Below, one piece after another: positions 7,016-63,748 of a DNA stretch of 64,000 nt (position 1 is the first letter of the stretch; each line of letters opens with the position of its first letter). The DNA comes from Flavobacterium sp. UBA6135 (GTDB lineage: Bacteria; Bacteroidota; Bacteroidia; Flavobacteriales; Flavobacteriaceae), in NCBI RefSeq assembly GCF_002428305.1, contig NZ_DIVJ01000023.1, forward strand, positions 108,489 to 172,488, written 5' to 3'. The position numbers were made by a program, and so were the translations under genes. The notes beneath the pieces are model-generated. The model was not told where the DNA came from, made no database searches, and worked only from the letters and a program-made list of their open reading frames with translations.

Positions 7016-7047
7016 AACTTGAAACGTTAAACTTGAAACTTTTAAAC
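7016..7047 (+). repeat. Degenerate heptamer array (TTGAAAC-type) before the GH65 start
   Basis: ttgaaac gttaaac ttgaaac ttttaaac. Confidence 0.7.
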
Positions 7048-7055
7048 TAAAATTA

Positions 7056-9359
7056 ATGAACCAAGATTATATCATACCAGATAACTGGTCGATTATTGAA
7101 GAAGGATTTGAACAAGACCTGGTTAAGTCTTCCGAAAGTTTGTTCAGCATTGGAAACGGTGCGATGGGACAACGTGCAAATTTTGAAGAATATTATTCCG
7201 GAAAAACCTTCCAAGGAAGTTATATTGCCGGAATTTATTATCCAGATAAAACAAAAGTGGGTTGGTGGAAAAACGGTTATCCCGAATATTTTGCCAAAGT
7301 GCTTAATGCTCCAAATTGGATTGGTATTAACATCGAAATTAACGGTGAAAATTTGGATTTAGCCAATTGTGCAGCAGTGAAAATTTTCCGTAGAGAGTTG
7401 AATATGAAAGAGGGTTGGTATCATCGTTCTTTTACAGCAACCCTTCAAAACGGAACTGAAATTGAAGTACAAGTGCGTCGTTTTCTTTCATTGGATTTAG
7501 ATGAAGTGGGTGTAATTAATTATCAAATTACCGCTTTAAATCAGGATGCGAAAATTGTTTTCAAACCGTATATTGATGCTGGTGTTCACAACGAAGATGC
7601 CAACTGGGAAGAAAAATTTTGGGAACCATTACATGTAAAAAATAATGGAAACGAAGCTTTTGTAACAGCAAGAACTTTCAAAACGCATTTTACCGCAACT
7701 ACATTCATGCACAATACGATTTTGGTGGGTGGAAAAAATGTAAATGTTTCTCCATCGAATGTTGTCGCACCACATGATAAAATTGAATTTTCGTATGAAG
7801 TTTCAGTTGCCCAAAATCAATCGGCTACCATTCAAAAAATAGGTGGTTACACCGTTTCAATGAACCATGAAAATACGGAAGAAGCGGCTAAAAAAGTTGT
7901 ATCTGAAGCAATTTCCATCGGTTACAACCAATTATTAGAAGACCAAATCAAGGCTTGGGCAAAAATTTGGGAAATGAGTGATATAACCATAGATGGTGAT
8001 GTGAAAGCTCAACAAGGAATTCGTTTCAATATTTTTCAATTAAACCAAACGTATTTAGGAAAAGATTCTCGTTTAAATATTGGTCCGAAAGGATTTACCG
8101 GAGAAAAATACGGCGGATCAACCTATTGGGATACAGAAGCGTATTGTATTCCTTTCTATATGGCCACCAAAGATCAACAAGTTGCTAGAAATCTATTGAC
8201 GTATCGTTACAATCAATTGGACAAAGCAATTGAAAATGCCGAAAAGTTAGGTTTTAAAAACGGTGCGGCTTTGTATCCGATGGTGACGATGAACGGTGAA
8301 GAATGTCACAATGAATGGGAAATTACGTTTGAAGAAATTCACCGTAACGGAGCCATTGCTTTTGCTATATTTAATTATTACCGATTCACAGGAGATTACA
8401 GCTATATTCCTGAAAAAGGTTTGGAAGTTTTAATCGGAATTGCTCGTTTTTGGCACCAAAGAGCCACCTACTCTACCTATCGAAATCAGTATGTAATTTT
8501 AGGTGTAACAGGTCCAAATGAATATGAAAATAACGTAAACAATAATTTTTACACCAATTATATTGCCAAGTGGTGTATTGATTATACGGTAGAACAAATT
8601 CAAAAAATTGAAAAAGAATATTCTTCAGATTATACTAGAATTTTAAATAAAGTAAAACTTTCTGTAGCTGAAATTAACCATTGGAAAGAAGTTGCCGATA
8701 ATATGTATTTTCCTTTTTCGGAAGAACACGACGTTTATTTGCAGCAAGATGGTTTCTTAGATAAAGAATTAGTAAAAGTTTCTGATTTAGATAAAAGTCA
8801 GCGACCGATTAATCAAAAATGGTCATGGGATCGAATTTTACGTTCGCCTTACATCAAACAAGCTGATACGTTACAAGGGTTTTATTTCTTTGAAGATCAT
8901 TTCAGTAAAGAACAATTAGAGAAACATTTCGATTTTTATGAACCATTTACCGTTCACGAAAGTTCACTTTCGCCTTGCGTTCACTCGATTCAAGCGGCTG
9001 TTTTGGATAGAATGGAACAAGCTTATACTTTCTATCTTCGAACTTCCCGTTTGGATTTAGATGATTATAACAAAGAAGTACACGAAGGTTTACACATCAC
9101 GTCGATGGCCGGAACTTGGATGAGTATTGTAGAAGGTTTTGGTGGAATGCGAGTGAAAAATGAAACCTTACATTTTGAACCAAAAATTCCAACACAATGG
9201 AAAGGCTATTCGTTTAAAATTAATTTCAGAAATCAAATTTTAAAAGTTTCTGTTCAATCTAATGAAACGAAGTTTTCTCTGGAAGGAAATAAACCAATTA
9301 CTGTTTTTGTAAAAGGAAAAGAAATCTTGGTGGAACCGAATAGTTTGGTTACCGTTTAA
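7056..9359 (+). CDS. GH65 maltose phosphorylase
   Basis: KGFTGEKYGGSTYWDTE, GPNEYE, KQAD and HESSLS motifs; coupled to pgmB. Confidence 0.92.
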   Translation: MNQDYIIPDNWSIIEEGFEQDLVKSSESLFSIGNGAMGQRANFEEYYSGKTFQGSYIAGIYYPDKTKVGWWKNGYPEYFAKVLNAPNWIGINIEINGENLDLANCAAVKIFRRELNMKEGWYHRSFTATLQNGTEIEVQVRRFLSLDLDEVGVINYQITALNQDAKIVFKPYIDAGVHNEDANWEEKFWEPLHVKNNGNEAFVTARTFKTHFTATTFMHNTILVGGKNVNVSPSNVVAPHDKIEFSYEVSVAQNQSATIQKIGGYTVSMNHENTEEAAKKVVSEAISIGYNQLLEDQIKAWAKIWEMSDITIDGDVKAQQGIRFNIFQLNQTYLGKDSRLNIGPKGFTGEKYGGSTYWDTEAYCIPFYMATKDQQVARNLLTYRYNQLDKAIENAEKLGFKNGAALYPMVTMNGEECHNEWEITFEEIHRNGAIAFAIFNYYRFTGDYSYIPEKGLEVLIGIARFWHQRATYSTYRNQYVILGVTGPNEYENNVNNNFYTNYIAKWCIDYTVEQIQKIEKEYSSDYTRILNKVKLSVAEINHWKEVADNMYFPFSEEHDVYLQQDGFLDKELVKVSDLDKSQRPINQKWSWDRILRSPYIKQADTLQGFYFFEDHFSKEQLEKHFDFYEPFTVHESSLSPCVHSIQAAVLDRMEQAYTFYLRTSRLDLDDYNKEVHEGLHITSMAGTWMSIVEGFGGMRVKNETLHFEPKIPTQWKGYSFKINFRNQILKVSVQSNETKFSLEGNKPITVFVKGKEILVEPNSLVTV

Positions 9360-9365
9360 TAAATT

Positions 9366-9420
9366 CTCGCAAAGACGCTAAGTCGCAAAGATTTACTTAG
9401 CGTCTCTGCGACTTTGCGAG
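9366..9420. repeat. Nested inverted-repeat intergenic element
   Basis: ctcgcaaag...ctttgcgag, acgctaagt/acttagcgt and agtcgca/tgcgact. Confidence 0.8.
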
Positions 9421-9435
9421 ATAAAACAATCAATT

Positions 9436-11298
9436 ATGAAAAAAATTTCATTACTACTGTTTTGTCTCGCATTTTCATTTTTATCCGCTCAAGTCAATCG
9501 AATTGAACCCACAAACTGGTGGACAGGATTCAAAAATGAAAATCTGCAATTGCTCGTGCATCATCCAAACATCGGAAATGCCACTCCAAAAATTTCCTAC
9601 GATGGTGTTTCAATTATCAAAGTTCACAAAGCTAAAAGTCTGAACTACTTATTTATCGATTTAAAAATTGATAAATCCACTAAACCCGGAAAATTCAATA
9701 TCATTTTTGAATCGGAAAAAGGAAAAAAAATCACACAATCGTACGAATTAAAACCGAAATCTAAACCTTCAGTAGATTTTATCGGTTTCAATAGTTCTGA
9801 TGCCATTTACCTCATCACGCCAGACCGTTTTGCCAACGGAAATGAAGCGAATGATGTTGTGAAAACTATGCAAGAAACTACATTAGACAGAACCCACGAT
9901 TACAAACGTCACGGTGGTGATATTCAAGGAATTACAAATCATATTGATTATATTAAAAATTTAGGATTTACTGCTATTTGGCCAACTCCGGTTTTGACGA
10001 ATGATATGAAAAGTGGTTCGTACCACGGCTATGCAATGACCGATTTTTATCAAGTAGATCCTCGATTCGGAACCTTAGCGGATTACAAAAATCTATCCAA
10101 AAAATTGCATCAAAATGGTATGAAACTCATTATGGATCAAGTTGCGAATCATTGCGGTAGCGAACATTGGTGGATGAAAGATTTACCATTTGGCGATTGG
10201 GTTAATTATCAGGAATTATTTGAAAAAGAAAAAAAATACGTCACTTCCAATCACCGAAGAACAAGCAATCAAGATTTGTATGCTTCCGAAAAAGACAAAA
10301 AAGAAATGGCCGATGGTTGGTTTGTTCCAACCATGCCCGATTTGAATCAACGCAATCCTTTTTTAGCAAAATACATCATTCAAAACAGCATTTGGTGGAT
10401 TGAAACCTTGCATTTAGGAGGAATTCGTCAAGACACTTATCCTTACCCTGACAAAGTTTTTATGTCAAATTGGGCTGGCGAAATCATGAATGAATATCCC
10501 AATTTTAATATTGTTGGCGAAGAATGGAGTTCGAATCCGTTGCTGATTGGTTATTGGCAAAAAGGTGCAAATAATAAAGACGGTTATGAATCGAACTTGC
10601 GTTCGACGATGGATTTTGCCATGCAAACCCTCATTCCGCAAGCCATCAAAGAAACAGAAAGTTGGGACAAAGGTTTGGCGAAAATTTACGATGGTTTAGC
10701 CAACGATTTTCATTATGCTTCGCCAAAAGACATTATGATTTTTCCGGATAATCACGATATGGATCGCATTTTTACACAAATGGAGGAAAATGTTGAAAAT
10801 ACTAAAATGGCTTTGGCAACCTATTTGGTTTTACCAAGAATTCCACAGTTGTATTATGGAACAGAAATCCTAATGCAAAACACTGCCAAACCAGGTGATC
10901 ACGGCTTAATTAGAACTGATTTTCCCGGTGGATGGAAAGGTGATAAAGTAAATGCTTTTATAGGCGAAGGACTTTCTGCTGAACAAAAAGATATGCAAAG
11001 CTATTTGACTAAAATTTTAAATTACCGAAAAGACAGCAAAGCCATACACGACGGTAAAACCATTCATTTTGCTCCGAATAATGGCGTTTATACCTTATTT
11101 AGAATGTTGAATGATGAAATTGTTATTTTAATTTTAAATAAAAACGAATCCACAAAAGTTGATCTTTCCACCTATAAAGAATTAGGTTTTGAAGGTAAAA
11201 AAATGAAGAACATTGTAACCGGAGAAGAAATTATTTGGGATAAAGAATTGACTTTAAACAAAAAAGGAGCCTATCTTTTTACGACAAAAATGAATTAA
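9436..11298 (+). CDS. GH13 cyclomaltodextrinase/neopullulanase (SusA-like)
   Basis: Signal peptide; catalytic motifs GIRQDTY, VGEEW, DNHD. Confidence 0.9.
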   Translation: MKKISLLLFCLAFSFLSAQVNRIEPTNWWTGFKNENLQLLVHHPNIGNATPKISYDGVSIIKVHKAKSLNYLFIDLKIDKSTKPGKFNIIFESEKGKKITQSYELKPKSKPSVDFIGFNSSDAIYLITPDRFANGNEANDVVKTMQETTLDRTHDYKRHGGDIQGITNHIDYIKNLGFTAIWPTPVLTNDMKSGSYHGYAMTDFYQVDPRFGTLADYKNLSKKLHQNGMKLIMDQVANHCGSEHWWMKDLPFGDWVNYQELFEKEKKYVTSNHRRTSNQDLYASEKDKKEMADGWFVPTMPDLNQRNPFLAKYIIQNSIWWIETLHLGGIRQDTYPYPDKVFMSNWAGEIMNEYPNFNIVGEEWSSNPLLIGYWQKGANNKDGYESNLRSTMDFAMQTLIPQAIKETESWDKGLAKIYDGLANDFHYASPKDIMIFPDNHDMDRIFTQMEENVENTKMALATYLVLPRIPQLYYGTEILMQNTAKPGDHGLIRTDFPGGWKGDKVNAFIGEGLSAEQKDMQSYLTKILNYRKDSKAIHDGKTIHFAPNNGVYTLFRMLNDEIVILILNKNESTKVDLSTYKELGFEGKKMKNIVTGEEIIWDKELTLNKKGAYLFTTKMN

Positions 11299-11301
11299 AG
11301 A

Positions 11302-15347: not shown

Positions 15348-15370
15348 GAGTTGATTAAATTATAAATAAT

Positions 15371-15398
15371 AAAGCCTATCAAAAAAATGATAGGCTTT
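15371..15398. terminator. Bidirectional intrinsic terminator
   Basis: AAAGCCTATCA-loop-TGATAGGCTTT between convergent genes. Confidence 0.8.
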
Positions 15399-15402
15399 AC
15401 TT

Positions 15403-15702: not shown

Positions 15703-15704
15703 TT

Positions 15705-16043: not shown

Positions 16044-16047
16044 CACG

Positions 16048-16069
16048 CAAAGTTATCTTAAAAGTTAAC
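16048..16069 (-). promoter_or_regulatory. -7 promoter overlapped by an imperfect palindromic operator (toxin-antitoxin autoregulation)
   Basis: TAACTTTG at 16048-16055 (minus strand); GTTATCTTAAAAGTTAAC at 16052-16069 is 14/18 palindromic. Confidence 0.6.
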
Positions 16070-21055: not shown

Positions 21056-21252
21056 GTTTTAATTTTACAACATCTGAATTTAAATTAAAAAAGAACACCG
21101 ATTGTTATAATTGGAGAAATTGAAATAATCAGTTTTTAATTTTTAAAATTTCTTGAATTTCCTAAATCTGTGTTCAAAAAATTAATATTCCCTTCATAAT
21201 CAAAAATGCTTTCTTTAAAATTGATTTTCCATCTTTGTAAAAATCCTTTCCC

Positions 21253-28230: not shown

Positions 28231-28707
28231 ATGAACAAATTTCTTTTTTATTCTTTTTTTTTCCTCTTGGCCTCCTGCCAATACTTTGAAAAGCGTGTGC
28301 CTTCCGAAGAAGAATTGCTTCAGGAACGCTTAAAACAAATTGATTGGAAAGAAGTTACTGATTATCCCTCTGTAAATGCTTGTGATAGTTTACTGGATAA
28401 AGAGCAAAAAAAGGCGTGTTTCTTTCAATTTTTGACTGAACTAATTCAACAGAAAATCGCAACAGATTCAACAGAAAATAGTGCTGAGATCTTTGACACC
28501 TTAAATGTTTTGGTCACTGTTTTTCCGGATGCCAACATTACATTTGAACCTCAATTCCCGTCAGATAGCACCAATTACAATAAAGCTAAAGTTGATAGCA
28601 TTCTTAAAAACAGACTCACAGATTTCCCTAAAATCGAACCCGCTCAGAAAGAAGGAATTCCAGTAAAAACACAATTTATTTTACCTATTCTTTTAAAAGC
28701 GGATTAA
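28231..28707 (+). CDS. Conserved hypothetical lipoprotein (TonB-C-terminal-like tail); ATG 28231 preferred to 28159
   Basis: Lipobox LASC; C-terminal PAQKEGIPVKTQFILPI. Confidence 0.75.
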   Translation: MNKFLFYSFFFLLASCQYFEKRVPSEEELLQERLKQIDWKEVTDYPSVNACDSLLDKEQKKACFFQFLTELIQQKIATDSTENSAEIFDTLNVLVTVFPDANITFEPQFPSDSTNYNKAKVDSILKNRLTDFPKIEPAQKEGIPVKTQFILPILLKAD

Positions 28708-29795
28708 GAATTGAATGTTCTCCCCTTCCACTCATAGGTTCCAAACAAAGAATACAATGCAACGGCTGAACTGAAAAACGGATAAACTAAAGCCGTCAAT
28801 AAAGTATTCTTCATTTTTATTTTATAAAATCGTGCGGTTTGATTGGCTACTAGTAAATCAGAAATGACTTTTAAAAGAAGTAAAATTATCATTTCATAAA
28901 ACCCAAAGAAAAGTAGAAATAAGGAAATGATAAAAGCTAAATTTCCTAAAAAAACTGTCAACGCCACAAATTTTCCGAAACCGGATGAATACGCTTTTGA
29001 TTTTCCGGCCCAACGAATGCGTTGCTGAAAAAGTTCTGTCCAACTTTCTGCCGAATTGGTTGTAACATGAAAATCTTTTTTGAGTAAAAATCCAACTTCA
29101 TCCGGAAAATTTTTAACAGCTTTTTGCAATAAAAACACATCGTCACCACTAGCAATTTTGTCATTTCCATCAAAAGCATTAAGTTGTTTATACAGATTTT
29201 TGGAATACCCAAAATTAGCTCCATTGCACATGAAAGCTAGATTAAAATCAAAACTACCTATAGTAACGGCTTGCAAACTAATCATTTCAATTTGCTGAAA
29301 GTCATTGAGAAAATTAGATTTACTTTTAAAAAAAACCGGTCCGCAAACCATTTGTTTTTTCGTGTTATGAATGTAATAATTCAAATCCAAAAGCCAGTTT
29401 TCAGGAACTATACAATCAGCATCGGTGGTGATAATCCAATCAAATTTTGAATGCTGAATTGCAGTTTGAATCGCATCTTTTTTTGGTGAGTTAGAAATTC
29501 TTTGATTCACAATCATTTGAACTTGAAACTTGAAACTTGAAACTTGAAACTTTTCCATCGACTCATCATCAACTAAAATCACCTCAAAATTTTCAACCGG
29601 ATAATTTAATTTTTCAATCGATTTTAAAAGAAATGGAAGATTTACAGCTTCATTTCGAAATGGAACAACAATGGAGTATGATAACTTTTCAGCGGATGAA
29701 TCTTCATTGGATTTTGGCACTTTTTTAAATCCCATCCAAAAGAAGAGCATCAAAAAAACATAAACCGAAATCGCTAAAATTAGTAAATACATCAT
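28704..29795 (-). CDS. GT2 glycosyltransferase, membrane-anchored
   Basis: VPFRNE, VDDES, TTDAD, NGAN, SGDD, QRIRW motifs. Confidence 0.92.
   Translation of the reverse strand: MMYLLILAISVYVFLMLFFWMGFKKVPKSNEDSSAEKLSYSIVVPFRNEAVNLPFLLKSIEKLNYPVENFEVILVDDESMEKFQVSSFKFQVQMIVNQRISNSPKKDAIQTAIQHSKFDWIITTDADCIVPENWLLDLNYYIHNTKKQMVCGPVFFKSKSNFLNDFQQIEMISLQAVTIGSFDFNLAFMCNGANFGYSKNLYKQLNAFDGNDKIASGDDVFLLQKAVKNFPDEVGFLLKKDFHVTTNSAESWTELFQQRIRWAGKSKAYSSGFGKFVALTVFLGNLAFIISLFLLFFGFYEMIILLLLKVISDLLVANQTARFYKIKMKNTLLTALVYPFFSSAVALYSLFGTYEWKGRTFNS
29517..29550 (-). repeat. Heptamer tandem repeat (GTTTCAA)x4 plus one degenerate unit, inside the GT2 CDS
   Basis: Encodes FQVSSFKFQVQ in frame. Confidence 0.95.
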
Positions 29796-30724
29796 AGCTC
29801 TAATTTTGGTTTAAATTTCAGTACAAAAAGGCTTCCAATCAAAACCGGAATAACCAAATTCAAAAGCCACATTAATGTTGTTATAGAAACAATTGTCCAT
29901 TGATTAACCCCTAATTTTCCGAACAAAACAACGGCGAAACTTCCTTTTATCGCCACATCCATCAAATGAATATTCGGAACAATGGAGGCTAAAAAATACA
30001 TTGAAAAAATAGTTGCCAAAGCTAAAGAATACGTAATTTCAACACCAAAAATCAACAATAAAAAATAGCATTGATGGGAGAAAATCAGAAATCGAATAAC
30101 CGATAATTGTATAGTTGTTTTGAGCGAATTTCTTGGAAAGGTTCTAATTTTCTGAATTAAGTTTTCAACTGAAAAACCATAAATGGAAATCTTTTTTCTA
30201 AAAATTAAAAAGACGAAAAAAATCAAAAAAATCAGAATTAAAACAAAGCTGATTTTATAACTGAAATAATCATAAAACAACCCTGTAATAAACAATCCAA
30301 AAACGCCAAAAAATGAAGTTGCAGCCATTTGAGAACTGTTTCCGATAAAATTCAAAAGAATAATTTTTTTGGTTTCTGATTTTGGAAAATATAACATTTT
30401 GGCTCCGTATTCCCCCATTCGATTAGGTGTAAAAACCGAAGCAGTTAATGACCCTAACGACTGAACCGCAGCTTCTTTAAACGAAATCTTATAAAAAGTA
30501 TTCACTAAGTTTTGCCATTTCAAAATCTCAAAAAACCAGTTTAAAACGCTTAAAAATACAATTCCTACTAAACTGAAAAATGTAAATTTAGTCGAGACAA
30601 GTTGCCAGTCGTTCAAATCTTTTTTGTTCAATTCAACATACAAATAATAAAAAGCAAAGCCCACAATCAAAAGTTTGACGAGAACCAGCAGGAATTGTTT
30701 AGCTTTGTAAGGAATTGAATTCAT
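29792..30724 (-). CDS. Lysylphosphatidylglycerol-synthase TM / flippase-like membrane protein
   Basis: NWFFEILKW, FTPNRMGEYG motifs; hydrophobic; ATG 30724 (track uses TTG 30730). Confidence 0.8.
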   Translation of the reverse strand: MNSIPYKAKQFLLVLVKLLIVGFAFYYLYVELNKKDLNDWQLVSTKFTFFSLVGIVFLSVLNWFFEILKWQNLVNTFYKISFKEAAVQSLGSLTASVFTPNRMGEYGAKMLYFPKSETKKIILLNFIGNSSQMAATSFFGVFGLFITGLFYDYFSYKISFVLILIFLIFFVFLIFRKKISIYGFSVENLIQKIRTFPRNSLKTTIQLSVIRFLIFSHQCYFLLLIFGVEITYSLALATIFSMYFLASIVPNIHLMDVAIKGSFAVVLFGKLGVNQWTIVSITTLMWLLNLVIPVLIGSLFVLKFKPKLEL

Positions 30725-30742
30725 CAACACAAATAAACAAAC

Positions 30743-30770
30743 TTTAAACCTGAAACTTTAAACTTTAAAC
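30743..30770 (+). repeat. Heptamer array before the ruvC start
   Basis: tttaaac ctgaaac tttaaac tttaaac. Confidence 0.85.
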
Positions 30771-30778
30771 AAAAAAGA

Positions 30779-31333
30779 TTGGCAAACGAACGCATCATCT
30801 TAGGCATCGACCCCGGAACCACCATCATGGGATTTGGTTTAATTAAAGTCGTGAACAAAAAAATGGAATTCATTCAGTTGAACGAATTGATTTTGAGTAA
30901 ATACGACGACCATTATACCAAGTTAAAGGTCATTTTTGAACGTACCATCGAGTTGATTGAAACCCATCATCCGGACGAAATTGCGATTGAAGCTCCATTC
31001 TTTGGTAAAAACGTCCAATCGATGCTCAAACTCGGACGAGCTCAAGGCGTGGCAATGGCAGCAGGATTATCGCGACAAATTCCGATTACCGAATACGAAC
31101 CTAAAAAGATAAAAATGGCTATCACCGGAAACGGAAACGCCAGTAAAGAGCAAGTGGCTAAAATGTTGCAACAATTGTTAGGCTTGAAAGAATTACCTAA
31201 AAATTTAGATTCTACCGATGGTTTGGCGGCGGCAGTTTGTCATTTTTTTAATTCAGGGAAAGTTGTTGGTACTACTAGCTATTCCGGATGGGATGCATTT
31301 GTAAAACAGAATGAAACTAGAGTTAAGAAATAG
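30779..31333 (+). CDS. ruvC: Holliday junction resolvase RuvC
   Basis: ILGIDPG, IAIE, D.TDGLA motifs; TTG start. Confidence 0.97.
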   Translation: MANERIILGIDPGTTIMGFGLIKVVNKKMEFIQLNELILSKYDDHYTKLKVIFERTIELIETHHPDEIAIEAPFFGKNVQSMLKLGRAQGVAMAAGLSRQIPITEYEPKKIKMAITGNGNASKEQVAKMLQQLLGLKELPKNLDSTDGLAAAVCHFFNSGKVVGTTSYSGWDAFVKQNETRVKK

Positions 31334-31360
31334 TGGTCAGTGGTCAGTTTTTAGTGATCA
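31320..31360 (+). repeat. 41-bp imperfect direct repeat, left copy (contains the ruvC stop)
   Basis: 34/41 identical to 31778-31818. Confidence 0.85.
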
Positions 31361-31422
31361 GTGAATCCAAGCATCATTATACTTTTATAAGAACTTTATA
31401 ATTTATTAACCATTCATAATAT

Positions 31423-31791
31423 ATGAAATTTCAAGATTTATTAGCCTATAAAAAATCATTTTCTTTAGCAATGAACATTTTTGAATTATCAAAATCATTT
31501 CCAAAAGAAGAGATTTATTCTTTGACCGATCAAATCAGGCGAAGCTCAAGAAGTGTTTCAATAACAATTGCGGAAGCTTATAGAAAAAGAGAATATCCGA
31601 AACACTTCCATAGCAAATTAACAGATGCCGATGCAGAAAACTCTGAAACACAAGGATGGCTAGAGTTTTGTTTTGCTTGTAAATACATTTCTGAAGAAAA
31701 ATTCATTGAATTGACAAACTTTAGTTTAGAAGTTGGAAAGTTGATAAACTATATGATGCTAAATCCTGAAAAATTTGGAGTTAAAAAATAG
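31423..31791 (+). CDS. Four-helix-bundle protein (23S rRNA-IVP / TIGR02436-like family)
   Basis: FQDLLAYKKS...FPKEE.YSLTDQIRRSSRSV..IAE.Y...ENSETQ.WL pattern. Confidence 0.92.
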   Translation: MKFQDLLAYKKSFSLAMNIFELSKSFPKEEIYSLTDQIRRSSRSVSITIAEAYRKREYPKHFHSKLTDADAENSETQGWLEFCFACKYISEEKFIELTNFSLEVGKLINYMMLNPEKFGVKK

Positions 31792-31818
31792 TGGGCAGTA
31801 ACCAGCTTTTAGTGGTCA
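31778..31818 (+). repeat. 41-bp imperfect direct repeat, right copy (contains the four-helix-bundle stop)
   Basis: Stop TAG at the same offset as in the left copy. Confidence 0.85.
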
Positions 31819-31824
31819 ATAATA

Positions 31825-31895
31825 ACTGAATACTAAAATACTGAAATCTGAACACTGAATACTGAATACTAAAAACTGAACACTGAACACTAAAA
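31825..31895 (+). repeat. Array of about 10 ACTGAA(C/T)-type heptamers abutting the hemW ATG
   Basis: actgaat actaaaat actgaaa tctgaac actgaat actgaat actaaaa actgaac actgaac actaaaa ATG. Confidence 0.92.
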
Positions 31896-33029
31896 ATGTC
31901 CGGCATCTACATCCACATACCTTTTTGCAAGCAAGCTTGTCATTACTGTGATTTTCACTTTTCAACTTCAATGAAGAAAAAAGACGAAATGGTTTTGGCT
32001 TTAGCAAAAGAAATTCAGTTGCGAAAAGAAGAATTCAAAAATGATATAGTTGAAACCATTTATTTTGGTGGCGGAACACCATCAGTATTAGCGATTGAAG
32101 ATTTGAGATTGTTGATTGATGAAGTTTATACAAACTACAACGTCATTGAAAACCCAGAGATTACTATAGAAGCGAATCCTGACGACTTATCGAATAACCG
32201 AATAATCGAACTATCCAACAATCGAATTAACCGCCTCTCCATCGGCATTCAATCTTTTTTTGAAGAAGATTTGAAAATGATGAATCGTGCTCATAATGCG
32301 GAAGAAGCTAAAAAATGTTTGGAAGAAGCAACTCAACATTTTGATAACATTTCCCTCGATTTGATTTATGGAATTCCGGGAATGAGTAACGAAAAATGGA
32401 TTCAAAATATTGAAACTGCTTTATCGTTTGGCATTCCGCATATTTCGAGTTATGCATTGACCGTTGAGCCGAAAACCGCTTTACATTCGTTTATTCAAAA
32501 AGGAATAATTCTACCACCAGAAGATGAAGTTGCCCAAGAACATTTTGAAATTTTAGTAGAAAAACTGGAAGAAGCCGGATTTATTCATTATGAATTGTCC
32601 AATTTTGGTAAGGAAAACTATTTCTCTAAAAACAATTCGAGTTATTGGTTGGGAAAAAAATACATTGGTATTGGTCCGTCAGCACATAGTTATGATGGCG
32701 AAAAACGAGGTTGGAATGTATCGAATAACACGTTGTATATCAAATCCATTCAAGATGGAAAATTGCCGTTTGAAACCGAAATTTTATCAAAAACCGATCG
32801 ATATAACGAATATGTGATGACGGGATTACGAACGATTTGGGGAATTTCGTTAGATAGAATTCAAACCGAATTTGGACAAACCTATTTAGATTACCTCAAC
32901 CAACAAGCCGCCAAATACATAGAAGATCATTTGCTTTTTGTAGATGAAAACATTCTGCGAACCACACGGAATGGAAAGTTTTTGAGTGATGGGATTGCAT
33001 CAGACTTATTTTTATTAAATTTGGAGTAA
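31896..33029 (+). CDS. hemW: Radical SAM heme chaperone HemW
   Basis: YIHIPFCKQACHYCDF, YFGGGTPS, YELSNF. Confidence 0.92.
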   Translation: MSGIYIHIPFCKQACHYCDFHFSTSMKKKDEMVLALAKEIQLRKEEFKNDIVETIYFGGGTPSVLAIEDLRLLIDEVYTNYNVIENPEITIEANPDDLSNNRIIELSNNRINRLSIGIQSFFEEDLKMMNRAHNAEEAKKCLEEATQHFDNISLDLIYGIPGMSNEKWIQNIETALSFGIPHISSYALTVEPKTALHSFIQKGIILPPEDEVAQEHFEILVEKLEEAGFIHYELSNFGKENYFSKNNSSYWLGKKYIGIGPSAHSYDGEKRGWNVSNNTLYIKSIQDGKLPFETEILSKTDRYNEYVMTGLRTIWGISLDRIQTEFGQTYLDYLNQQAAKYIEDHLLFVDENILRTTRNGKFLSDGIASDLFLLNLE

Positions 33030-33030
33030 A

Positions 33031-33113
33031 ATGGAACGCTGATTTTACGGATGCTAGCAACGCTGATTAATTCGTAAATATCCGCGTTAGAATATCCAGT
33101 AAACCCGCGTTCA
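33031..33113. repeat. Degenerate inverted-repeat intergenic element
   Basis: aacgctgatt x2 and ccgcgtt x2; ends tggaacgc/gcgttcaa. Confidence 0.65.
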
Positions 33114-33116
33114 ACT

Positions 33117-53792: not shown

Positions 53793-53900
53793 TTTAGAAG
53801 CGAATTAGGCAAAAGGCAATGGCCAAAAGCAGTAATTTGAATAGAAACAAAAATACATTTTAAGGGGGAAGAAATCAACTTTAGTTATTAACAAAAAGCA

Positions 53901-53930: not shown

Positions 53931-53952
53931 AATATCGTATAAAGAAAAATTC

Positions 53953-54969: not shown

Positions 54970-55111
54970 TATTTCGGTAAATTTGAATTGCATTAGTGAT
55001 ACAAAAATAGTTTTTCTACTGAAATAGCCCTCAATATTTGTATAAAAATTTGAAAAACAGAACATTTTTTAATAAAAGACAGTTTAGAGTTGGGCACATT
55101 GAAAACTTTTG

Positions 55112-55168
55112 TATATTTGCACCCTTAATTAACAGAGGTCGAGAACCTCAAAATTTAATCACAAGATT
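55112..55168 (+). promoter_or_regulatory. rpsP promoter plus leader hairpin (candidate ribosomal-protein leader)
   Basis: TATATTTG at 55112-55119; GAGGT-CGAGA-ACCTC hairpin at 55135-55149. Confidence 0.6.
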
Positions 55169-55747: not shown

Positions 55748-55759
55748 TAAATTGCGATA

Positions 55760-56284
55760 ATGCGTAAAGAAGAATGTTTCTATCTTGGCAAAATCGCTAA
55801 AAAATTTAGTTTCAAAGGGGAATTGTTAGTCTATTTAGACACTGACGAACCCGAGTTATATGAAAATATGGAATCAGTTTTTGTTGAATTAAACAAAAAC
55901 TTGGTTCCATTTTTTATTGAAAATAGTTCGCTACACAAAAATGATTTTCTCAGGGTTAAATTTGAAGATGTAGAAAATGAAGCTGATGCAGATGCAATTA
56001 TGGGTTGCGAGCTTTATTTGCCTCTCTCTTTTCTTCCAAAATTAGAAGGAAATCAATTTTATTATCACGAAGTAATTGGCTTCGAAATTGAAGACCAACG
56101 TCTTGGTGTTTTTGGAAAAATTGTTTCTATAAACGATTCAACCGCTCAGCCACTTTTTGAAGTTTTGAATGGTGCGGTGGAAATGCTTATTCCAATGATT
56201 GATCACTTTTTGGTTAAAATTGATCGTGAAAATAAAAAGGTAATCATGAATTTACCGGAAGGTTTGGTGGAGATGTATCTTTAG
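55760..56284 (+). CDS. rimM: Ribosome maturation factor RimM
   Basis: GKIAKKFSFKGE, FYYHEVIG; synteny with rpsP. Confidence 0.95.
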   Translation: MRKEECFYLGKIAKKFSFKGELLVYLDTDEPELYENMESVFVELNKNLVPFFIENSSLHKNDFLRVKFEDVENEADADAIMGCELYLPLSFLPKLEGNQFYYHEVIGFEIEDQRLGVFGKIVSINDSTAQPLFEVLNGAVEMLIPMIDHFLVKIDRENKKVIMNLPEGLVEMYL

Positions 56285-56287
56285 AAC

Positions 56288-56317
56288 GTTTCAGGTTTCA
56301 AGTTTCAAGTTTCAAGT
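56288..56317 (+). repeat. (GTTTCAA)-heptamer array directly after the rimM stop
   Basis: gtttcag gtttcaa gtttcaa gtttcaa gt. Confidence 0.9.
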
Positions 56318-56415
56318 ATTGAAATCAAAAATCTTCATTCAAAAATCGTTAATTTTGATTTTGTAATTCTTAAAAAATACCTGAAGCCCACTGGACTTCC
56401 TCCTTTTAATTTCAA

Positions 56416-57123: not shown

Positions 57124-57263
57124 CTTCATTTTTATTGTCTGTTTTTGGAAATTATAACAATCGTTAATTGATTTGTTACATTTCTTTACTTACTTTTGCA
57201 AACGTTTTCGTTATCAATATTAACCAAGATGAGATTGCATTTTGCCTCATAAAAGCACAACTT

Positions 57264-58442: not shown

Positions 58443-58445
58443 TAT

Positions 58446-58478
58446 AAAAAGTCCTTCTAAACCTAGAAGGACTTTTTT
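58446..58478. terminator. Bidirectional terminator
   Basis: AAAAGTCCTTCTA-AACC-TAGAAGGACTTTT. Confidence 0.85.
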
Positions 58479-58491
58479 CTTTACAACCTAA

Positions 58492-60336
58492 TTATTTAAA
58501 AATTGGTATTTTTTGAGTATAAGCTTTTTTAGATTCATTTGTTGTAATTTGAAGGATGTGAATGCTATCACCTAACAAACTTGTATCAAATTCATAGTTA
58601 CTGTTGGATCCCATATTTTTAAAATGAAGTACTTTTTTTCCTGAAAGATCAAATAAATCAATAGTGTTTAATTCTAAATTTTTAGGGTTCTTAATAACCA
58701 ATAAATTATCTTTTAAATTGGAATACCCAAGTAGTTGGCTATCCAAAAGTTCAGGGACATTTAAAGTAGCGTTCAAAAAAGTAATTTCATAACGCGTGTT
58801 GTTTGTGCCGGCAGGTAATATTATTGTTTGTTCACTATTTTTTATATCATAGTACACCCCTGTAACTTTATCATGTAAATAAACATCTAAAAACCCGGAA
58901 ACGCCACACATTTCAACAACTCCAATTTTGAAAGTTGCCTCAGTGTTACATTTAAATCCTATTGGATACACATTTGTAACCGCAAAAGGCATTGTTGAAT
59001 GAACGTATTCTTGCTGATTTAAATAAAGATAAGAATCAAAAGGTAAATTGGTGCCATCGCCTGATTTTGAATCTGCATTATCCAAACCTTCTGTAGCATT
59101 AGAAAGAAAACAAATTGCATATTGTCTAATTGCTTGGTTGTTCAAAAGCGTATTTATTTTAATGTGAGGAGCCGGTTTTTTATTAATTTGTGTATAATCA
59201 ATACCTGCTAAATTTGGAATTTCTCCAAAGAAATCACTTTCATTATCTTCAGTAGGGTTACTAGTTGAAGCAGTGTTAGCATTACGTTCAAATTGTGATT
59301 GATTTGAAAAGCCTTCTTTTCTAAAGACTCTATGGGTATTTTTCATTTTAACCGTACCGTCTGCCAAACCTCTTATCATGAATCCTTGTCCTATGGGAGA
59401 AAAACGTCTTTCGTAACTATTCAATGGATTGCTGGCAACGGTGCCTTGATTTCCGCCAATATCATAATTATAAAAAGTAGCAGGCGTATAAACACTAGTT
59501 GAACCATTATAAACACCATAACCTCCGCGATAATTCGATACTACATGTGAATTCACCGTTTTGTCGTGTTCCCAAAATAAAGCAGTTCCGTCAATAAAAG
59601 GTGTGTTTTCAGAATCCGTTAAAAAAAGGTTTAAGTCAATCGCAGAAGGATATGGATTTCCGGTTAATGTGAATTTATTTGCTGCTACTTCAATAGAGAT
59701 TGTGCCTGAATTAGGTCTACCTCTAAAATCATAGCGTTGACTTGTCCCAGATGCATTGTTTGGAACTATCCCAGCATAAGGCTGTGTGGAATCAAAACCT
59801 GAACTGCCCTTCATTGTAAATCCTTGTCCAGTTACAATATTTATTGCAGCACCTGTATGCAACCACTGCGAATAAAATTCAGAAGATAAAAATCGATAAA
59901 TCCATTTTGAAGATATAGTTAAACTTGTATCTGTTGTTGATCCGTTATTTGAAGCAGTTGTTACAACAGGTAAACTTTGTGTTTTAGTTACCGGTCTTTG
60001 AAATAAAGTAATACCAAAAGGATTATTACCTAACGTAGAAGTACTACCCACTGGAGAACACCAATAATTATACTGAAAATTGTTTACCGTTCCTTCTTGA
60101 TAAACAGACAATTGCCCTAACCCCTCGTTTGTTGAAGCAACTTCTTTCTGTAATAATTGTCCGTTATTCCTCAGATAAACTGCTGCAGATGGTGCTAAGT
60201 TTAAATAACTACTAACAGTTATATATTGATTGTCTACATACAAAAACGAATTATTTTTTACATATAGCTGTCCTTTTACATAAAAAGGAAGAAATAGTAA
60301 AATATAGCATACTGCTTTTCTCATTTTTAATATCAT
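58492..60336 (-). CDS. Large secreted protein with a T9SS-like C-terminal domain
   Basis: Signal peptide; YWCSPV, GQGFTMKG, GNPYPSAIDL; CTD-like LFDLSGKKV tail. Confidence 0.8.
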   Translation of the reverse strand: MILKMRKAVCYILLFLPFYVKGQLYVKNNSFLYVDNQYITVSSYLNLAPSAAVYLRNNGQLLQKEVASTNEGLGQLSVYQEGTVNNFQYNYWCSPVGSTSTLGNNPFGITLFQRPVTKTQSLPVVTTASNNGSTTDTSLTISSKWIYRFLSSEFYSQWLHTGAAINIVTGQGFTMKGSSGFDSTQPYAGIVPNNASGTSQRYDFRGRPNSGTISIEVAANKFTLTGNPYPSAIDLNLFLTDSENTPFIDGTALFWEHDKTVNSHVVSNYRGGYGVYNGSTSVYTPATFYNYDIGGNQGTVASNPLNSYERRFSPIGQGFMIRGLADGTVKMKNTHRVFRKEGFSNQSQFERNANTASTSNPTEDNESDFFGEIPNLAGIDYTQINKKPAPHIKINTLLNNQAIRQYAICFLSNATEGLDNADSKSGDGTNLPFDSYLYLNQQEYVHSTMPFAVTNVYPIGFKCNTEATFKIGVVEMCGVSGFLDVYLHDKVTGVYYDIKNSEQTIILPAGTNNTRYEITFLNATLNVPELLDSQLLGYSNLKDNLLVIKNPKNLELNTIDLFDLSGKKVLHFKNMGSNSNYEFDTSLLGDSIHILQITTNESKKAYTQKIPIFK

Positions 60337-60758
60337 ATTAAATTATTTAAAATCTATCTTTTCAGTGTAAAGAATAAAAAGGCTTCGTTAAAACTAGATT
60401 ATATTAAATTTGAGGTAACCAAAAATAGTATATTAATCAAAATAATCATTATTTTAACAGTAATTAAGTTTGTTTATTATGATAATCGTAAATTTTAAAC
60501 TTTTTATTTAATTATTATTAATTTTTTATAAATATTTATGCAATCCATTACATATTTACTATTTCTTTAATTCATTAATTATATTAAAATTCTTAAAAAT
60601 TTGATTTTAATTACTAAAGAGGTTGATTTATATTCTCTATTTTGAAAAAAAGTGCTGGTGTTTCTTTTGATAAGTAAATCAAACCGGTGTATAATTAATT
60701 TCAATCATATAAATTTCGTAAAACCATGAAGCTTTTCTATTTTTGAAGTAAAAAAGCT

Positions 60759-61544
60759 ATGAACTTTAACAACATTAAGCAAACTATTGAGCCACTTCGT
60801 TTACAACTTTTAAATCATTCTTTATACAAAAACATAAAAACTGCAGACGATTTACATAGCTTTCTAGAAGGCCACGTTTATGCTGTTTGGGATTTTATGT
60901 CTCTTTTAAAGGCACTTCAATCAAAATTAACGTGCACTACAACACCTTGGATTCCCTATGGAAATCCAGAGATTAGGTATTTGATTAACGAGATTGTACT
61001 GGCAGAAGAAACAGATATTTCACTTGACGGAAAAAGACAAAGTCACTTTGAAATGTATTTAGACGCTATGAATACGTGTGATTCTAACACCCAAGAGGTT
61101 GCTAGATTTTTAGAAAACATTCAAGAAACTCAAAACATTTTTGTTTCGATTAAGCAAAGTAATTTAGACCCTAAAATAAAATCATTTTTAGATTTTACTT
61201 TTAGAATAATTGAAGAGGGAAAACCTCACAAAATCGCTGCTGCTTTTACATTTGGCAGAGAAGATTTAATTCCGGATATGTTTACTTCAATACTTAAAAA
61301 CTTCCAAGAAAACTTCCCTGAAACTAATTTAGCAAAACTTATCTACTATTTTGAAAGACATATTGAATTAGATGGCGACGAACATGGCCCGATGGCTATG
61401 AAGATGATAGCAGAATTATGTGGCGAAAATGAAACAAAATGGAAAGAAGTAGCAGAAGTCTCTGTTTTAGCGTTAGAAAAACGTATTGGCCTTTGGGATG
61501 CAATAGAGGAGAAAATTCTTCAAAAAGAAGTTTGTCATCCCTAG
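60759..61544 (+). CDS. DUF3050-family protein (heme-oxygenase-like helical fold)
   Basis: HVYAVWDFMSLLKALQ, INEIVLAEETD, SHFEMY, YFERHIELDGDEHG. Confidence 0.85.
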   Translation: MNFNNIKQTIEPLRLQLLNHSLYKNIKTADDLHSFLEGHVYAVWDFMSLLKALQSKLTCTTTPWIPYGNPEIRYLINEIVLAEETDISLDGKRQSHFEMYLDAMNTCDSNTQEVARFLENIQETQNIFVSIKQSNLDPKIKSFLDFTFRIIEEGKPHKIAAAFTFGREDLIPDMFTSILKNFQENFPETNLAKLIYYFERHIELDGDEHGPMAMKMIAELCGENETKWKEVAEVSVLALEKRIGLWDAIEEKILQKEVCHP

Positions 61545-61571
61545 TTATTTAAAAAGTAAAAGTTGTAATTC

Positions 61572-62285
61572 ATGAGAAAAGTTTTCGCTTGCCTATTTCT
61601 TACCATTCTAACATTATTAGGATGCTCTGACAATGAAAACCATTTGGAAACAGAAGAAATTCAAATTCAAAATGAATACCATTATCTAGCATTAGGGGAT
61701 AGTTATACCATCGGTCAAAGTGTTTGTGAGACTTGTCGGTTTCCTGAACAATTAAAAGACAGTTTGAAAAATCATTTAAATGCTTCAGACAAAATTACGG
61801 TAAAAGTAGTTGCTCAAACCGGCTGGACTACGAGCAATTTAAAAACAGCAATTACTAATGAAAATTTAATTTCAGAATATGATCTGGTAACATTATTAAT
61901 TGGCGTTAATAACCAATATCAAAACAAACCTTTTTTGTTGTACGAAACTGAATTTCCTGAGTTACTTCAGAAAGCAATTATTTTGGCAAAAGGAAATAAA
62001 AATCGTGTAATTGTAATTTCTATTCCGGATTATGCTTTTACTCCTTTTGGACAATCAAGCTCAAATCCGCAATCAATTTCAAATGAATTGGACAATTATA
62101 ATTTGTTTGCTAAAAATTATGCGGAATCTCAAGGAATAATTTTTATAAACATTACCGATATTACACGAAATGGACTGAATAATCCAGATTTGGTTGCTTC
62201 AGATAATTTACATCCGTCAAAATTAGCTTATTCAAAATTTGTTGAAAGGATATTACCTGATGCGAAAAATATTTTGGGGATTTAA
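61572..62285 (+). CDS. SGNH/GDSL hydrolase lipoprotein
   Basis: Lipobox LLGC; LGDSYT, IGVNN, DNLHP. Confidence 0.92.
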   Translation: MRKVFACLFLTILTLLGCSDNENHLETEEIQIQNEYHYLALGDSYTIGQSVCETCRFPEQLKDSLKNHLNASDKITVKVVAQTGWTTSNLKTAITNENLISEYDLVTLLIGVNNQYQNKPFLLYETEFPELLQKAIILAKGNKNRVIVISIPDYAFTPFGQSSSNPQSISNELDNYNLFAKNYAESQGIIFINITDITRNGLNNPDLVASDNLHPSKLAYSKFVERILPDAKNILGI

Positions 62286-62618
62286 CTATTGTTCTGGTGC
62301 TATTTGAACTTCTAAACCTTCTATTTCTTGATTAATATGAATTTGGCATCCTAATCTACTGTTTTCTTGAACATGATAAGCCTCCCAGAGCATTGCCTCT
62401 TCATCAGGAGATTTTTCCGGCAAGGGTACTTCATTTAAAACATAACATTGACAAGAAGCACACATTGCCATCCCCCCACATATTCCTATCGTTCCTTCCT
62501 CTGCCAATTCAAAAGCACGAATCACTTCCATAAGATTCATGTTCATGTCTGTTGGAGCTTGCACTTCGTGTTGAACTCCATTTCGGTCTGTAATTTTAAT
62601 AGTGATGTCTTTTGACAT
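62286..62618 (-). CDS. 2Fe-2S ferredoxin (start MSKDIT; track extends to 62681)
   Basis: CGG.AMCASC...SRLGCQI. Confidence 0.92.
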   Translation of the reverse strand: MSKDITIKITDRNGVQHEVQAPTDMNMNLMEVIRAFELAEEGTIGICGGMAMCASCQCYVLNEVPLPEKSPDEEAMLWEAYHVQENSRLGCQIHINQEIEGLEVQIAPEQ

Positions 62619-62622
62619 ATTT

Positions 62623-63681
62623 TTATTCAATCGATTTAACAACTGCTTTTTCAGCTTCTTTTCGTGTCCCATCAAAACCATCTACACCGGAAACCGTTGT
62701 ATATTTTAAAACATATTTTTTACCGGGGTTTAATCTGCTGTAAACACTTTGACACATTAAAGTGGCTTCGTGAAACCCACATAAAATCAGTTTTAGTTTT
62801 CCGGGATAGGTATTAACATCACCAATAGCATAAATTCCTTCAATATTGGTTTGATAATCTAGAGCATTATTCACTTTAATGGCGTTTTTCTCGATTTCTA
62901 AACCCCAATTTGCAATGGCACCCAACTTTGGCGTGAGTCCGAATAAGGGGATAAAATAATCTGTTTCCACATTCATTCGAGCTCCGTTAATTTCTATATC
63001 AACGGATTCAATTCGTTCTGATCCTTTGAAACCAACTACTTCTGCCGGTGTAATTAATTTTATTTTCCCTTCGTTTTTTAATTCTTGTACTTTTTCAACG
63101 GAATCTAAAGCTCCTCTAAATTCATTTCTTCTGTGAACCAAAGTTACTTCTGAAGCAACGTCAGAAAGAAAGATGCTCCAGTCTAATGCAGAATCACCCC
63201 CTCCTGAAATTACAATTTTTTTATTCCTGAAAAGTTCCGGGTCTTTAACAAAATATTCAATTCCACGACCTTCTTTCTCATAAAACTCTACATCTTTCAA
63301 CAAAGGTTTTCTAGGTTCAAAAGTTCCTAATCCTCCGGCAATAGCAATCGCTTTTGCATGATGTTGCGTTCCTTTGTTTGTGGTAACAATAAAACTTCCA
63401 TCTTCTAATTTATCGATTGTTTCAGCAGTTTCTCCCAAAGTAAATCCGGGTTGGAATTGTTTAATTTGTTCCATTAAGTTGGTTACTAAATCACCTGCTA
63501 AAACTTCGGGATAACCAGGAATATCATAAATAGGTTTTTTGGGATAAAGTTCTGCCAACTGACCTCCGGGTTGCGGAAGAGCATCAATTAAATGGCATTT
63601 TAATTTTAAAAGTCCTGCTTCAAAAACAGTAAAAAGCCCTGTCGGGCCAGCACCAATAATGAGTATATCAGTTTGTATCAT
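62623..63681 (-). CDS. Ferredoxin-NADP+ reductase (TrxB-like, YumC type)
   Basis: IIGAGPTG, GGGDSALDW, YAIGD; no CxxC motif. Confidence 0.88.
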   Translation of the reverse strand: MIQTDILIIGAGPTGLFTVFEAGLLKLKCHLIDALPQPGGQLAELYPKKPIYDIPGYPEVLAGDLVTNLMEQIKQFQPGFTLGETAETIDKLEDGSFIVTTNKGTQHHAKAIAIAGGLGTFEPRKPLLKDVEFYEKEGRGIEYFVKDPELFRNKKIVISGGGDSALDWSIFLSDVASEVTLVHRRNEFRGALDSVEKVQELKNEGKIKLITPAEVVGFKGSERIESVDIEINGARMNVETDYFIPLFGLTPKLGAIANWGLEIEKNAIKVNNALDYQTNIEGIYAIGDVNTYPGKLKLILCGFHEATLMCQSVYSRLNPGKKYVLKYTTVSGVDGFDGTRKEAEKAVVKSIE

Positions 63682-63692
63682 TCTATTTTAAG

Positions 63693-63748
63693 TTGCTAAG
63701 ATTCTGAGTTACTGAGATTCTGAGTTACTGAGAAGCTGAGTTGCTGAG
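63693..63748 (-). repeat. Array of seven octamers (nnnCTGAG on the + strand) before the FNR start
   Basis: ttgctaag attctgag ttactgag attctgag ttactgag aagctgag ttgctgag. Confidence 0.92.

Follow-up and report, generated by a model that had tools for sequence, protein, structure and literature searches.

Fixed arm order of 7- and 8-base tandem arrays at Flavobacterium gene junctions and their association with four-helix-bundle genes

Intergenic arrays of tandem heptamers have been known since 1990, when the short tandemly repeated repetitive (STRR) sequences of cyanobacteria were reportedly described by Mazel et al. In many bacteria, no long simple repeat is more frequent than the heptamer according to Mrazek 2007, as that work is cited by MacGregor 2015 (PMC4679880). 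The latter study described TAACTGA repeats in Beggiatoaceae, cyanobacteria and five Bacteroidetes. These are intergenic tandem heptamers, lying mostly a few nucleotides from a start codon without Shine-Dalgarno (SD) sequence, 'forward' ahead of starts and with indels in 7-nt steps; one set in Flexibacter litoralis is in reverse orientation directly past a stop (PMC4679880). Binding of S1, cold-shock proteins (Csp) or CsrA was suggested for the repeats, as was horizontal transfer, without a vehicle (PMC4679880). Here, we analysed tandem arrays of 7- or 8-base units at the gene junctions of a 64,000-nt stretch (the window; positions 108489-172488 of contig C37) from a 3.0-Mb draft genome with a G + C content of 34%, which is placed in Flavobacterium by its named relatives. 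The arrays extend what has been described for heptamer repeats between genes (STRR, TAACTGA); new are a structural rule and an association with genes for four-helix-bundle proteins (TIGR02436/PF05635). Coordinates given without a contig refer to the window.

Arrays were called genome-wide with Tandem Repeats Finder (TRF), with long non-overlapping open reading frames (ORFs) serving as genes (2596 genes, 88% coding). Arrays with a period of 7 or 8 number approximately 170 in the genome, most of them intergenic. Among strong arrays (at least 3 copies and a score of at least 40), 77 have period 7 and 57 have period 8, compared to 13 with period 6 and 20 with period 9, which makes periods 7 and 8 four to six times as common as periods 6 or 9. 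Orientation was scored by comparing G + T with A + C along the coding strand of the neighbouring gene, with a limit of 20 nt from the codon. Arrays touching only a start were A/C-rich in 40 cases, G/T-rich in 3 and neutral in 5, whereas those touching only a stop were G/T-rich in 27, A/C-rich in 7 and neutral in 1 (Fisher odds ratio 51, p = 5e-11; binomial p = 3e-9 for starts and 8e-4 for stops). Spacer-filling arrays, which touch both a start and a stop, were A/C-rich in 10 cases and G/T-rich and neutral in 1 each. The polarity rule that the initial annotation had proposed for the window, with GTTTCAA- or TCAGT-type arrays after stops and arrays of the reverse-complement type before starts, thus holds across the whole 3.0-Mb genome and is not random.

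Flanks without arrays are only mildly skewed (48% vs 23% upstream, 39% vs 29% downstream), and background composition fails to account for the polarity of the arrays. The polarity was found to be equal for genes of both strands, which rules out a replication-strand artefact. Keto/amino skew (G + T vs A + C) and G-C skew are informative measures of orientation; the lexicographically canonical unit and A-T skew were tried as well and gave a weak signal or none.

Genomes of the same genus contain 1-10 arrays per 100-kb sample, with a polarity as in the window genome. In other families, the density was 6 per 100 kb (G028) or 2 in a 20-kb sample (G027), and several families of similar G + C content have zero or nearly zero arrays (G037 and G029 had 0 per 100 kb). 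These values bear on the possibility that the arrays are mutational by-products that emerge anywhere in spacers and drift, with slippage favouring units of 7-8 nt, as Mrazek 2007 reportedly proposed, polarity taken over from the composition of the local seed and arms produced via template switching. We regard such an origin as improbable. The abundance of heptamers in many bacteria, for which Mrazek 2007 is cited in PMC4679880, is in line with it; however, the background skew is far too weak for a ratio of 40:3, and arrays are absent from the G037 and G029 samples, compared to 4-10 per 100 kb in the genus, despite a G + C content similar to that of the genus.

The arrangement of the arrays follows a recurrent plan. 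Inspection of approximately 78 short array-bearing spacers shows a repeated layout in which the stop codon is followed by a G/T-rich unit in n copies, a loop, the reverse-complementary A/C-rich unit in n copies, an A-run and the ATG, as in TAAATT GTTTCAA GTTTCAG GTTTCAA ... TTGAAAC CTGAAAC TTGAAAC TTGAAAC AAAAAAAGCTATG. At least a dozen unit families are built in this way. The arrays measure about 4.5 units or 33 nt; G/T-rich arrays begin a median of 4.5 nt past the stop, and A/C-rich arrays finish a median of 8 nt ahead of the ATG, with a gap consisting of 66% A and 4% G. Intergenic inverted repeats with a score of at least 36 are enriched about 8-fold (257 vs 30 in shuffles). A hairpin whose arms are reverse-complementary arrays was found in 39 of the 99 array junctions (about 40%), its first arm containing more G than C in 27 cases and otherwise in 11. 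Since a G/T-rich arm followed by an A/C-rich arm is identical on either strand, the rule holds at co-directional, convergent and divergent spacers, and the polarity described above is this fixed arm order viewed from the adjacent genes.

Intrinsic terminators were ruled out as an identity of the hairpins, because the stems have a G + C content of about 30% and lack a U-tract, an A-run and ATG follow instead, and the composition of the arms is opposite to that of terminators. The last point is seen in the direct comparison of periodic hairpins with terminator-type inverted repeats, which gave arm orders of 15:4 and 68:219, respectively. The order in the array hairpins avoids a 3' U-rich arm plus U-tract on both strands, so that transcription termination would not be expected; this may be a second reason for the order. 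Mismatches in the stems, counted on the sense strand, show no strand-specific excess of G-U (31) over A-C (38), indicating that complementarity may be maintained in the DNA itself or through templated repair. RNA elements pairing 3' and 5' untranslated regions, as proposed earlier, may exist: around 40% of the array junctions have complementary arms, and a strand-specific G-U signal is missing. The same lack of an RNA signal would suit a mutational origin.

These results also bear on a reading of the arrays as RNA elements of the host, to which we give limited credence and which we hold to be unlikely. The A/C-rich array would then be a structure-free pad for SD-less ribosomes, perhaps with one unit per S1 OB fold or cold-shock protein, and the G/T-rich array would be an anti-leader. 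The terminating ribosome would open the intercistronic hairpin, which couples translation, or RNase III would cut it as it does phage T7 intergenic sites, and the four-helix-bundle genes would exploit array stems as they do 23S rRNA stems. Such a role agrees with the distance from the stop, which lies within a ribosome footprint, with the distance to the ATG, with the array size and with stems that have no trailing U-tract. It further agrees with the occurrence of PF05635 genes in 23S rRNA stems, which is reflected in the family name, and with the binding of S1, Csp or CsrA proposed for TAACTGA (MacGregor 2015, PMC4679880). On the other hand, G-U pairs are not above A-C mismatches, 60 of the 99 array junctions have no hairpin, and G/T-rich arrays past stops are also present between convergent genes, with no gene start ahead of them.

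The association with a gene family is exemplified by the junction of ruvC (30779-31333, + strand, TTG start, TAG stop) and hemW (31896-33029, + strand, ATG start). There, a gene for a four-helix-bundle protein of 122 aa (31423-31791, + strand) is enclosed as cargo between both arms. The left G/T-rich arm (31331-31363, + strand; called by TRF at 31332-31363) consists of (NNTCAGT)n units of the GGTCAGT type and opens with the ruvC stop codon TAG. The right A/C-rich arm (31823-31895, + strand) contains about 10 units of ACTGAAY or ACTAAAA and reaches the hemW ATG at 31896; within it, TRF called 7.4 copies of ACTGAAY at 31837-31896. Immediately 3' of the four-helix-bundle stop lies a decayed direct copy of the left arm (31789-31822, + strand), which pairs with the right arm at -20.9 kcal/mol (z -4). 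In the closest relative (L122), the first 26 nt of this post-cargo copy are identical to the upstream arm.

The encoded protein reaches 103 bits with PF05635 (cut-off 33.8) and 93 bits with TIGR02436 (NCBIfam, cut-off 24), and its relatives in the PDB, 2RLD and 2GSC, have five chains per entry. Its similarity to the Avd equivalog model of diversity-generating retroelements is weak (24 bits vs a cut-off of 80). This score and the neighbours ruvC and hemW rule out a diversity-generating retroelement.

Seven TIGR02436/PF05635 genes were found in the genome, and all of them are enclosed by a split array hairpin. Their bracket scores range from 32 to 82, compared to scores of at least 30 in 10 of 2544 other genes (0.4%). 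The layout of these cassettes is an upstream stop, arm 1, 30-90 nt, the gene with its stop, and arm 2 up to the next ATG; a copy of arm 1 ahead of arm 2 is present at some loci only. All seven genes are co-directional with both neighbours and lie in seven different unit families, several of which rank among the commonest genome-wide. In 24 other genomes, 19 of 26 four-helix-bundle genes are significantly bracketed, 14 of these 19 with more G than C in arm 1. The initial annotation had suggested footprints or landing pads of small-ORF cassettes, and from the side of the genes this idea is strongly supported.

Relatives of the window's four-helix-bundle gene are also found at different sites. 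Among the best 80 homologues of the window gene (72-93% identity), 46 are located at ruvC-hemW and 34 elsewhere, at no fewer than eight distinct sites in Flavobacterium, Winogradskyella, Aequorivita, Flavivirga, Mesonia and Algibacter. The majority of these 34 have NNTCAGT...ACTGANN arms abutting the stop and start of their neighbours. In a protein tree, the four-helix-bundle clades map onto unit families, albeit imperfectly. The explanation by slippage and template switching is already strained by these observations, namely by the nesting of the gene in seven of seven cases and by lineages that keep their unit at different sites. Two contigs with such genes stem from metagenome-assembled genomes (MAGs) labelled as other organisms. 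One (L166, labelled Rhizobium) is Flavobacterium-like and carries a four-helix-bundle gene 75% identical to that of the window; the other (L125, labelled Limnohabitans), likewise Flavobacterium-like, shows the order ruvC-cassette-hemW with a RuvC of 92% identity. Both assignments are probably binning errors.

A different view of the same correspondence is that each paralogue, as a pentameric protein with an Avd-like nucleic-acid-binding fold, binds its own unit. The arrays would then be sites of a regulon, of defence or of partition, and a gene placed among its own sites would be autoregulated. The match of gene clades with unit families, the presence of seven paralogues with seven families, several of them among the commonest, the weak Avd similarity and the five chains of the PDB relatives can be cited for such recognition, as can the rough co-occurrence of genes and arrays across bacterial families. 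Nevertheless, it appears quite unlikely: the genome lacks a cognate gene for the major families GTTTCAA and AGTGATT, genome G039 has 3 four-helix-bundle genes and no arrays in a 100-kb sample, 119 of the 120 TAACTGA loci described below have no such gene nearby, and sister proteins can differ in their unit.

Orthologous junctions were compared for the presence of arrays and inserted ORFs. At ruvC-hemW, 24 genomes of the same genus were compared: 4 have the cassette, 5 an ORF-less hairpin with the CAGT/ACTG unit, 3 a hairpin with another unit (TGTCAAT/ATTGACA) and 3 almost no spacer (e.g. TAGCATG), while the remaining genomes have other short spacers or a different gene 3' of ruvC. At rimM-trmN, where the window has a solo GTTTCAA array, arrays directly past the rimM stop were observed nearly everywhere in 30 genomes, with six or more unit families, and 5 of the 30 relatives contain a four-helix-bundle ORF (E about 1e-16). 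Insertions of the kind anticipated by the initial annotation are hence present at both junctions. Units change fast between species with 95% identical proteins, a turnover that a purely mutational process would allow. The persistence of hairpins at one junction across many species despite the change of unit points towards a host RNA function; the spacerless relatives at ruvC-hemW argue against it, as the hairpin is dispensable there.

At rimM-trmN, the region between the arms holds a Flavo-1 motif (RF01705, 57-70 bits) in at least five genomes (L325, L327, L335, L341 and L349). The insert of L326, which the Flavo-1 scan left out, is nearly identical to those bearing the motif. Flavo-1 matches lie in either orientation or outside transcripts (PMC9723704). 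In the array loop, the motif is always antisense to rimM, which fits this remark, as would be expected for a repeat acting at the DNA level. The Flavo-1 copies of the window genome show no systematic bracketing by arrays.

Bacteroidota are said to initiate translation without SD sequences, on leaders that Baez et al. 2019 reportedly found to be A-rich and G-poor. The pre-start arrays have an A content of 44% and a G content of 9%, equal to native regions from -20 to -1, and contain C where native leaders contain T. With a pre-start array, the minimum free energy (MFE) of the region from -40 to +10 averages -1.1 kcal/mol compared to -3.6 kcal/mol (p = 7e-11). The initial annotation had proposed that pre-start arrays supply the A-rich context used in place of an SD sequence; a native-like content of A and G and a nearly structure-free region are consistent with this. 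The leader-like composition, the low degree of structure and the start pattern of spacer-filling arrays (10:1) fit selection of arm order by SD-less initiation. That solo pre-start arrays are unstructured and paired ones sequestered would also agree with an RNA element serving the host.

The arm order extends beyond the genus. An exact scan for (TAACTGA)4 yielded 120 loci in cyanobacteria, Parabeggiatoa, Bacteroidota and other phyla. Where a gene end lies at a distance of 40 nt or less, the arrays ahead of starts are forward at a ratio of 44:1, and those past stops are reverse at a ratio of 36:1. For approximately one in four, an inverted copy lies no more than 700 nt away, and in 37 of 39 such pairs TCAGTTA is the left and TAACTGA the right array. 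TAACTGA is a rotation of ACTGATA, to whose family the ACTGAAY arm ahead of hemW may belong: the units there (ACTGAAT, ACTGAAC and ACTAAAA) are 1-2 bases apart from it, and the other arrays of the window are unrelated. Members of the (TAACTGA)4 set were also observed in MAGs labelled Poribacteria, Verrucomicrobia, Pyrinomonadaceae, Victivallaceae, Desulfobacula and Planctomycetaceae (L215, L230, L243, L244, L250 and L259), a spread over MAG phyla wider than the published range.

Taken together, we lean towards the explanation that the arrays are the arms of fast-evolving, cassette- or MITE-like intergenic elements (MITE, miniature inverted-repeat transposable element) whose arm order is filtered by translation initiation. 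Each arm would consist of 7- or 8-base units in tandem and be prone to slippage. The full element would run from the stop through n copies of a G-containing, T-rich unit, a loop or cargo and n copies of the A/C-rich, G-poor reverse complement to an A-run and the ATG. Some elements would bear a promoter-less PF05635 gene, co-directional with its neighbours, and each four-helix-bundle lineage would travel with its own unit family, arms and gene forming a transposase-free cassette. ORF-less hairpins and solo arrays would be derivatives, arising for example through recombination between the left arm and the post-cargo copy. Selection at the start codon would be the main force keeping the arm order, since the ATG-side arm would have to mimic a native leader in an SD-less lineage, i.e. 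be A-rich, G-poor and unstructured.

Several results weigh against this explanation. Most arrays are far from four-helix-bundle genes (about 170 arrays compared to 7 genes), so the arrays may come first and the gene may be a lodger. GTTTCAA, the commonest family here, has no cognate gene in the genome. A four-helix-bundle gene lies beside 1 of the 120 TAACTGA loci, where more would be expected, which indicates that the arrays are a wider phenomenon with the gene as a minority cargo and weakens the view of arrays as cassette derivatives. Sister lineages of the protein sometimes have different units. The arm order in the hairpins of this genome is a bias of 71% and no law, being reversed in one four-helix-bundle cassette (C11) and in the hairpin at 9365-9421. 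Loops vary within one hairpin family, and recent copy-and-paste is not visible. The polarity is the same in cyanobacteria and Beggiatoaceae, which partly use SD sequences, so that the argument from selection may be incomplete. No transposase was found for the arrays, no consistent target-site duplication was seen at the elements, and none of the neighbour genes at the seven loci is integrase-like, although no search aimed at integrases was made. In view of these negative results, we infer movement of the elements from their distribution only.

A more far-reaching version is offered tentatively, and we consider it rather doubtful. PF05635 genes and chiral array hairpins would then constitute a new class of transposase-free mobile cassettes with the arms as ends, the Avd-related protein would recognise its own unit, and the ORF-less copies would be the origin of STRR and TAACTGA repeats. 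If true, this cassette origin would explain the common distribution of the heptamers in Bacteroidota, Cyanobacteria and Beggiatoaceae.

The remaining arrays of the window conform to the pattern to different degrees. A check against NCBIfam found the gene names of the initial annotation (ruvC, the four-helix-bundle gene, hemW, rimM and GH65) to be correct, and TRF together with direct reading located arrays at six of the positions named there, including those at ruvC-hemW. A solo A/C-rich array of TTGAAAC and TTAAAC units (7015-7048, + strand) ends 8 nt short of the ATG (7056) of the GH65 gene (7056-9359, + strand; NCBIfam) and is unstructured as RNA (z -0.8). A further A/C-rich array with the units AAACTTT/AAACCTG, corresponding to the TTTAAAC/CTGAAAC type (30739-30770, + strand; MFE -0.3 kcal/mol), ends 8 nt short of the ruvC start TTG at 30779. 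It fills nearly all of the 48 nt (30731-30778) separating ruvC from a divergent gene (29792-30730, - strand), which leaves two ordinary promoters without room. The solo G/T-type array (GTTTCAA)x4.3 (56288-56317, + strand, 95% matches) begins 4 nt past the stop of rimM (55760-56284, + strand; NCBIfam). An A/C-rich octamer array, AACTCAGN on the minus strand (63691-63752), ends 9 nt short of the start of a reductase gene (62623-63681, - strand; NCBIfam) and is likewise unstructured as RNA (z 0.1). The solo arrays of the window fold no better than shuffles.

Of the nested inverted repeats and arrays claimed by the initial annotation, not all were retained. At 9366, octamer units form a strong hairpin, TCGCAAAG ... 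CTTTGCGA (9365-9421, + strand), which fills the spacer from the GH65 stop (9359) to an ATG at 9436 and folds at -29 kcal/mol (z -6.3); its A-rich arm comes first, reversing the usual order. The repeat at 21093 is not made of tandem units. The 'TTGCCTT-like' array ahead of dnaE (53793-53835, - strand) amounts to 2-3 loose copies, which are absent from the TRF table and, if an array, would be G/T-rich ahead of a start.

A perfect (AACTTGA)x4.7 array (29520-29552, - strand) lies in frame within a glycosyltransferase ORF (28704-29795, - strand). It belongs to the commonest intergenic family, and a change in length by one or two units would shift the reading frame. Imperfect inverted repeats of the type AACGCTGAT / ATCCGCGTT were observed 3' of hemW (33030-33116) and 3' of a GxxExxY gene (C17:6299-6384) and may be another unit family. 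An Rfam search of the window at the gathering threshold matched two tRNAs and an S16 leader only, so the arrays match no known RNA family. The leader (S16-Flavobacteria, RF03138, 39.1 bits, 55128-55159) is located upstream of the rpsP-like gene preceding rimM.

GxxExxY genes had also been considered as possible inserts. In this genome they have no flanking tandem arrays, and one of three has a plain inverted bracket of 17 bp. This gene (TIGR04256, C44:46545-46919) lies between perfect inverted repeats GCCACGAATTCACAAAT / ATTTGTGAATTCGTGGC without tandem units, so that a long-range stem encloses a small ORF in its loop here as well.

Among known systems, repetitive extragenic palindromic (REP) sequences, their hairpin-forming doublets (REPINs) and MITEs share several features with the elements described here, which are short, non-autonomous, confined to spacers, multicopy, polymorphic in presence or absence and built as hairpins from inverted repeats (PMC3116915). 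Compared to REPINs and their REP-associated tyrosine transposases (RAYTs), the arms here are tandem arrays of short units from a dozen or more unrelated families, the element sequence is not conserved, a cognate transposase is lacking, and the cargo is a helical-bundle protein of 120 aa. Membership in the REPIN/RAYT system was ruled out: there is no shared palindromic unit, loops differ, and the only RAYT-like ORF of the genome is flanked by another hairpin. This ORF (C16, 897-1358), identified by eye as similar to Y1 transposases of IS200/IS605, lies between CGGATTTCAATCCG hairpins, with which it resembles a separate, classical REP system. MITEs are characterised by terminal inverted repeats, a target-site duplication and descent from a parent with a transposase. 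Inverted arms are present here, whereas the full-length form holds a four-helix-bundle gene instead of a transposase.

PF05635, a family known since the 1990s, also occurs as ORFs in intervening sequences of 23S rRNA in Leptospira, Coxiella and others, which sit in a helix of the rRNA gene and are excised by RNase III. As in those sequences, the gene here lies in the loop of a long stem, is dispensable and has a patchy distribution, but the stems consist of tandem repeats and lie between protein-coding genes. All seven copies are situated between protein-coding genes and none in 23S rRNA genes, and Rfam found no rRNA in the window. Integron cassettes are recombined by the integrase IntI, which acts on attC and attI. 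A small promoter-less, co-directional ORF, foldable imperfect inverted repeats and presence or absence at a fixed site are shared with them; here, the ORF has a repeat arm on each side, where integron cassettes have one attC on one side, and no attI and no arrays of cassettes were seen.

The closest relatives remain the heptamer repeats themselves. At least three tandem 7-nt copies at many, mostly intergenic loci, as in STRR sequences, are found here, together with 8-nt units. The likeness to STRR sequences and long simple repeats extends to several unit families and a proposed generation by slippage, as far as PMC4679880 reports on them. Searches of the open-access literature found no report of an STRR orientation rule relative to stop and start, of arm pairing or of cargo genes, and no prior description of the hairpin and cassette architecture. 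The forward placement before starts of the TAACTGA class recurs here (40 A/C-rich vs 3 G/T-rich arrays, median gap 8 nt). MacGregor 2015 covers one unit and no partner arm, strand-symmetric order, multiple families or four-helix-bundle link (PMC4679880). Many 5' leaders and operon spacers of Flavobacterium consist of these arrays, which are thus relevant for annotation, expression engineering in Bacteroidota, assembly breaks and strain typing. To the known heptamer repeats, our analysis adds a concrete link to one gene family and a strand-symmetric arm order that explains the orientation of arrays at all junction types and is valid in other phyla.

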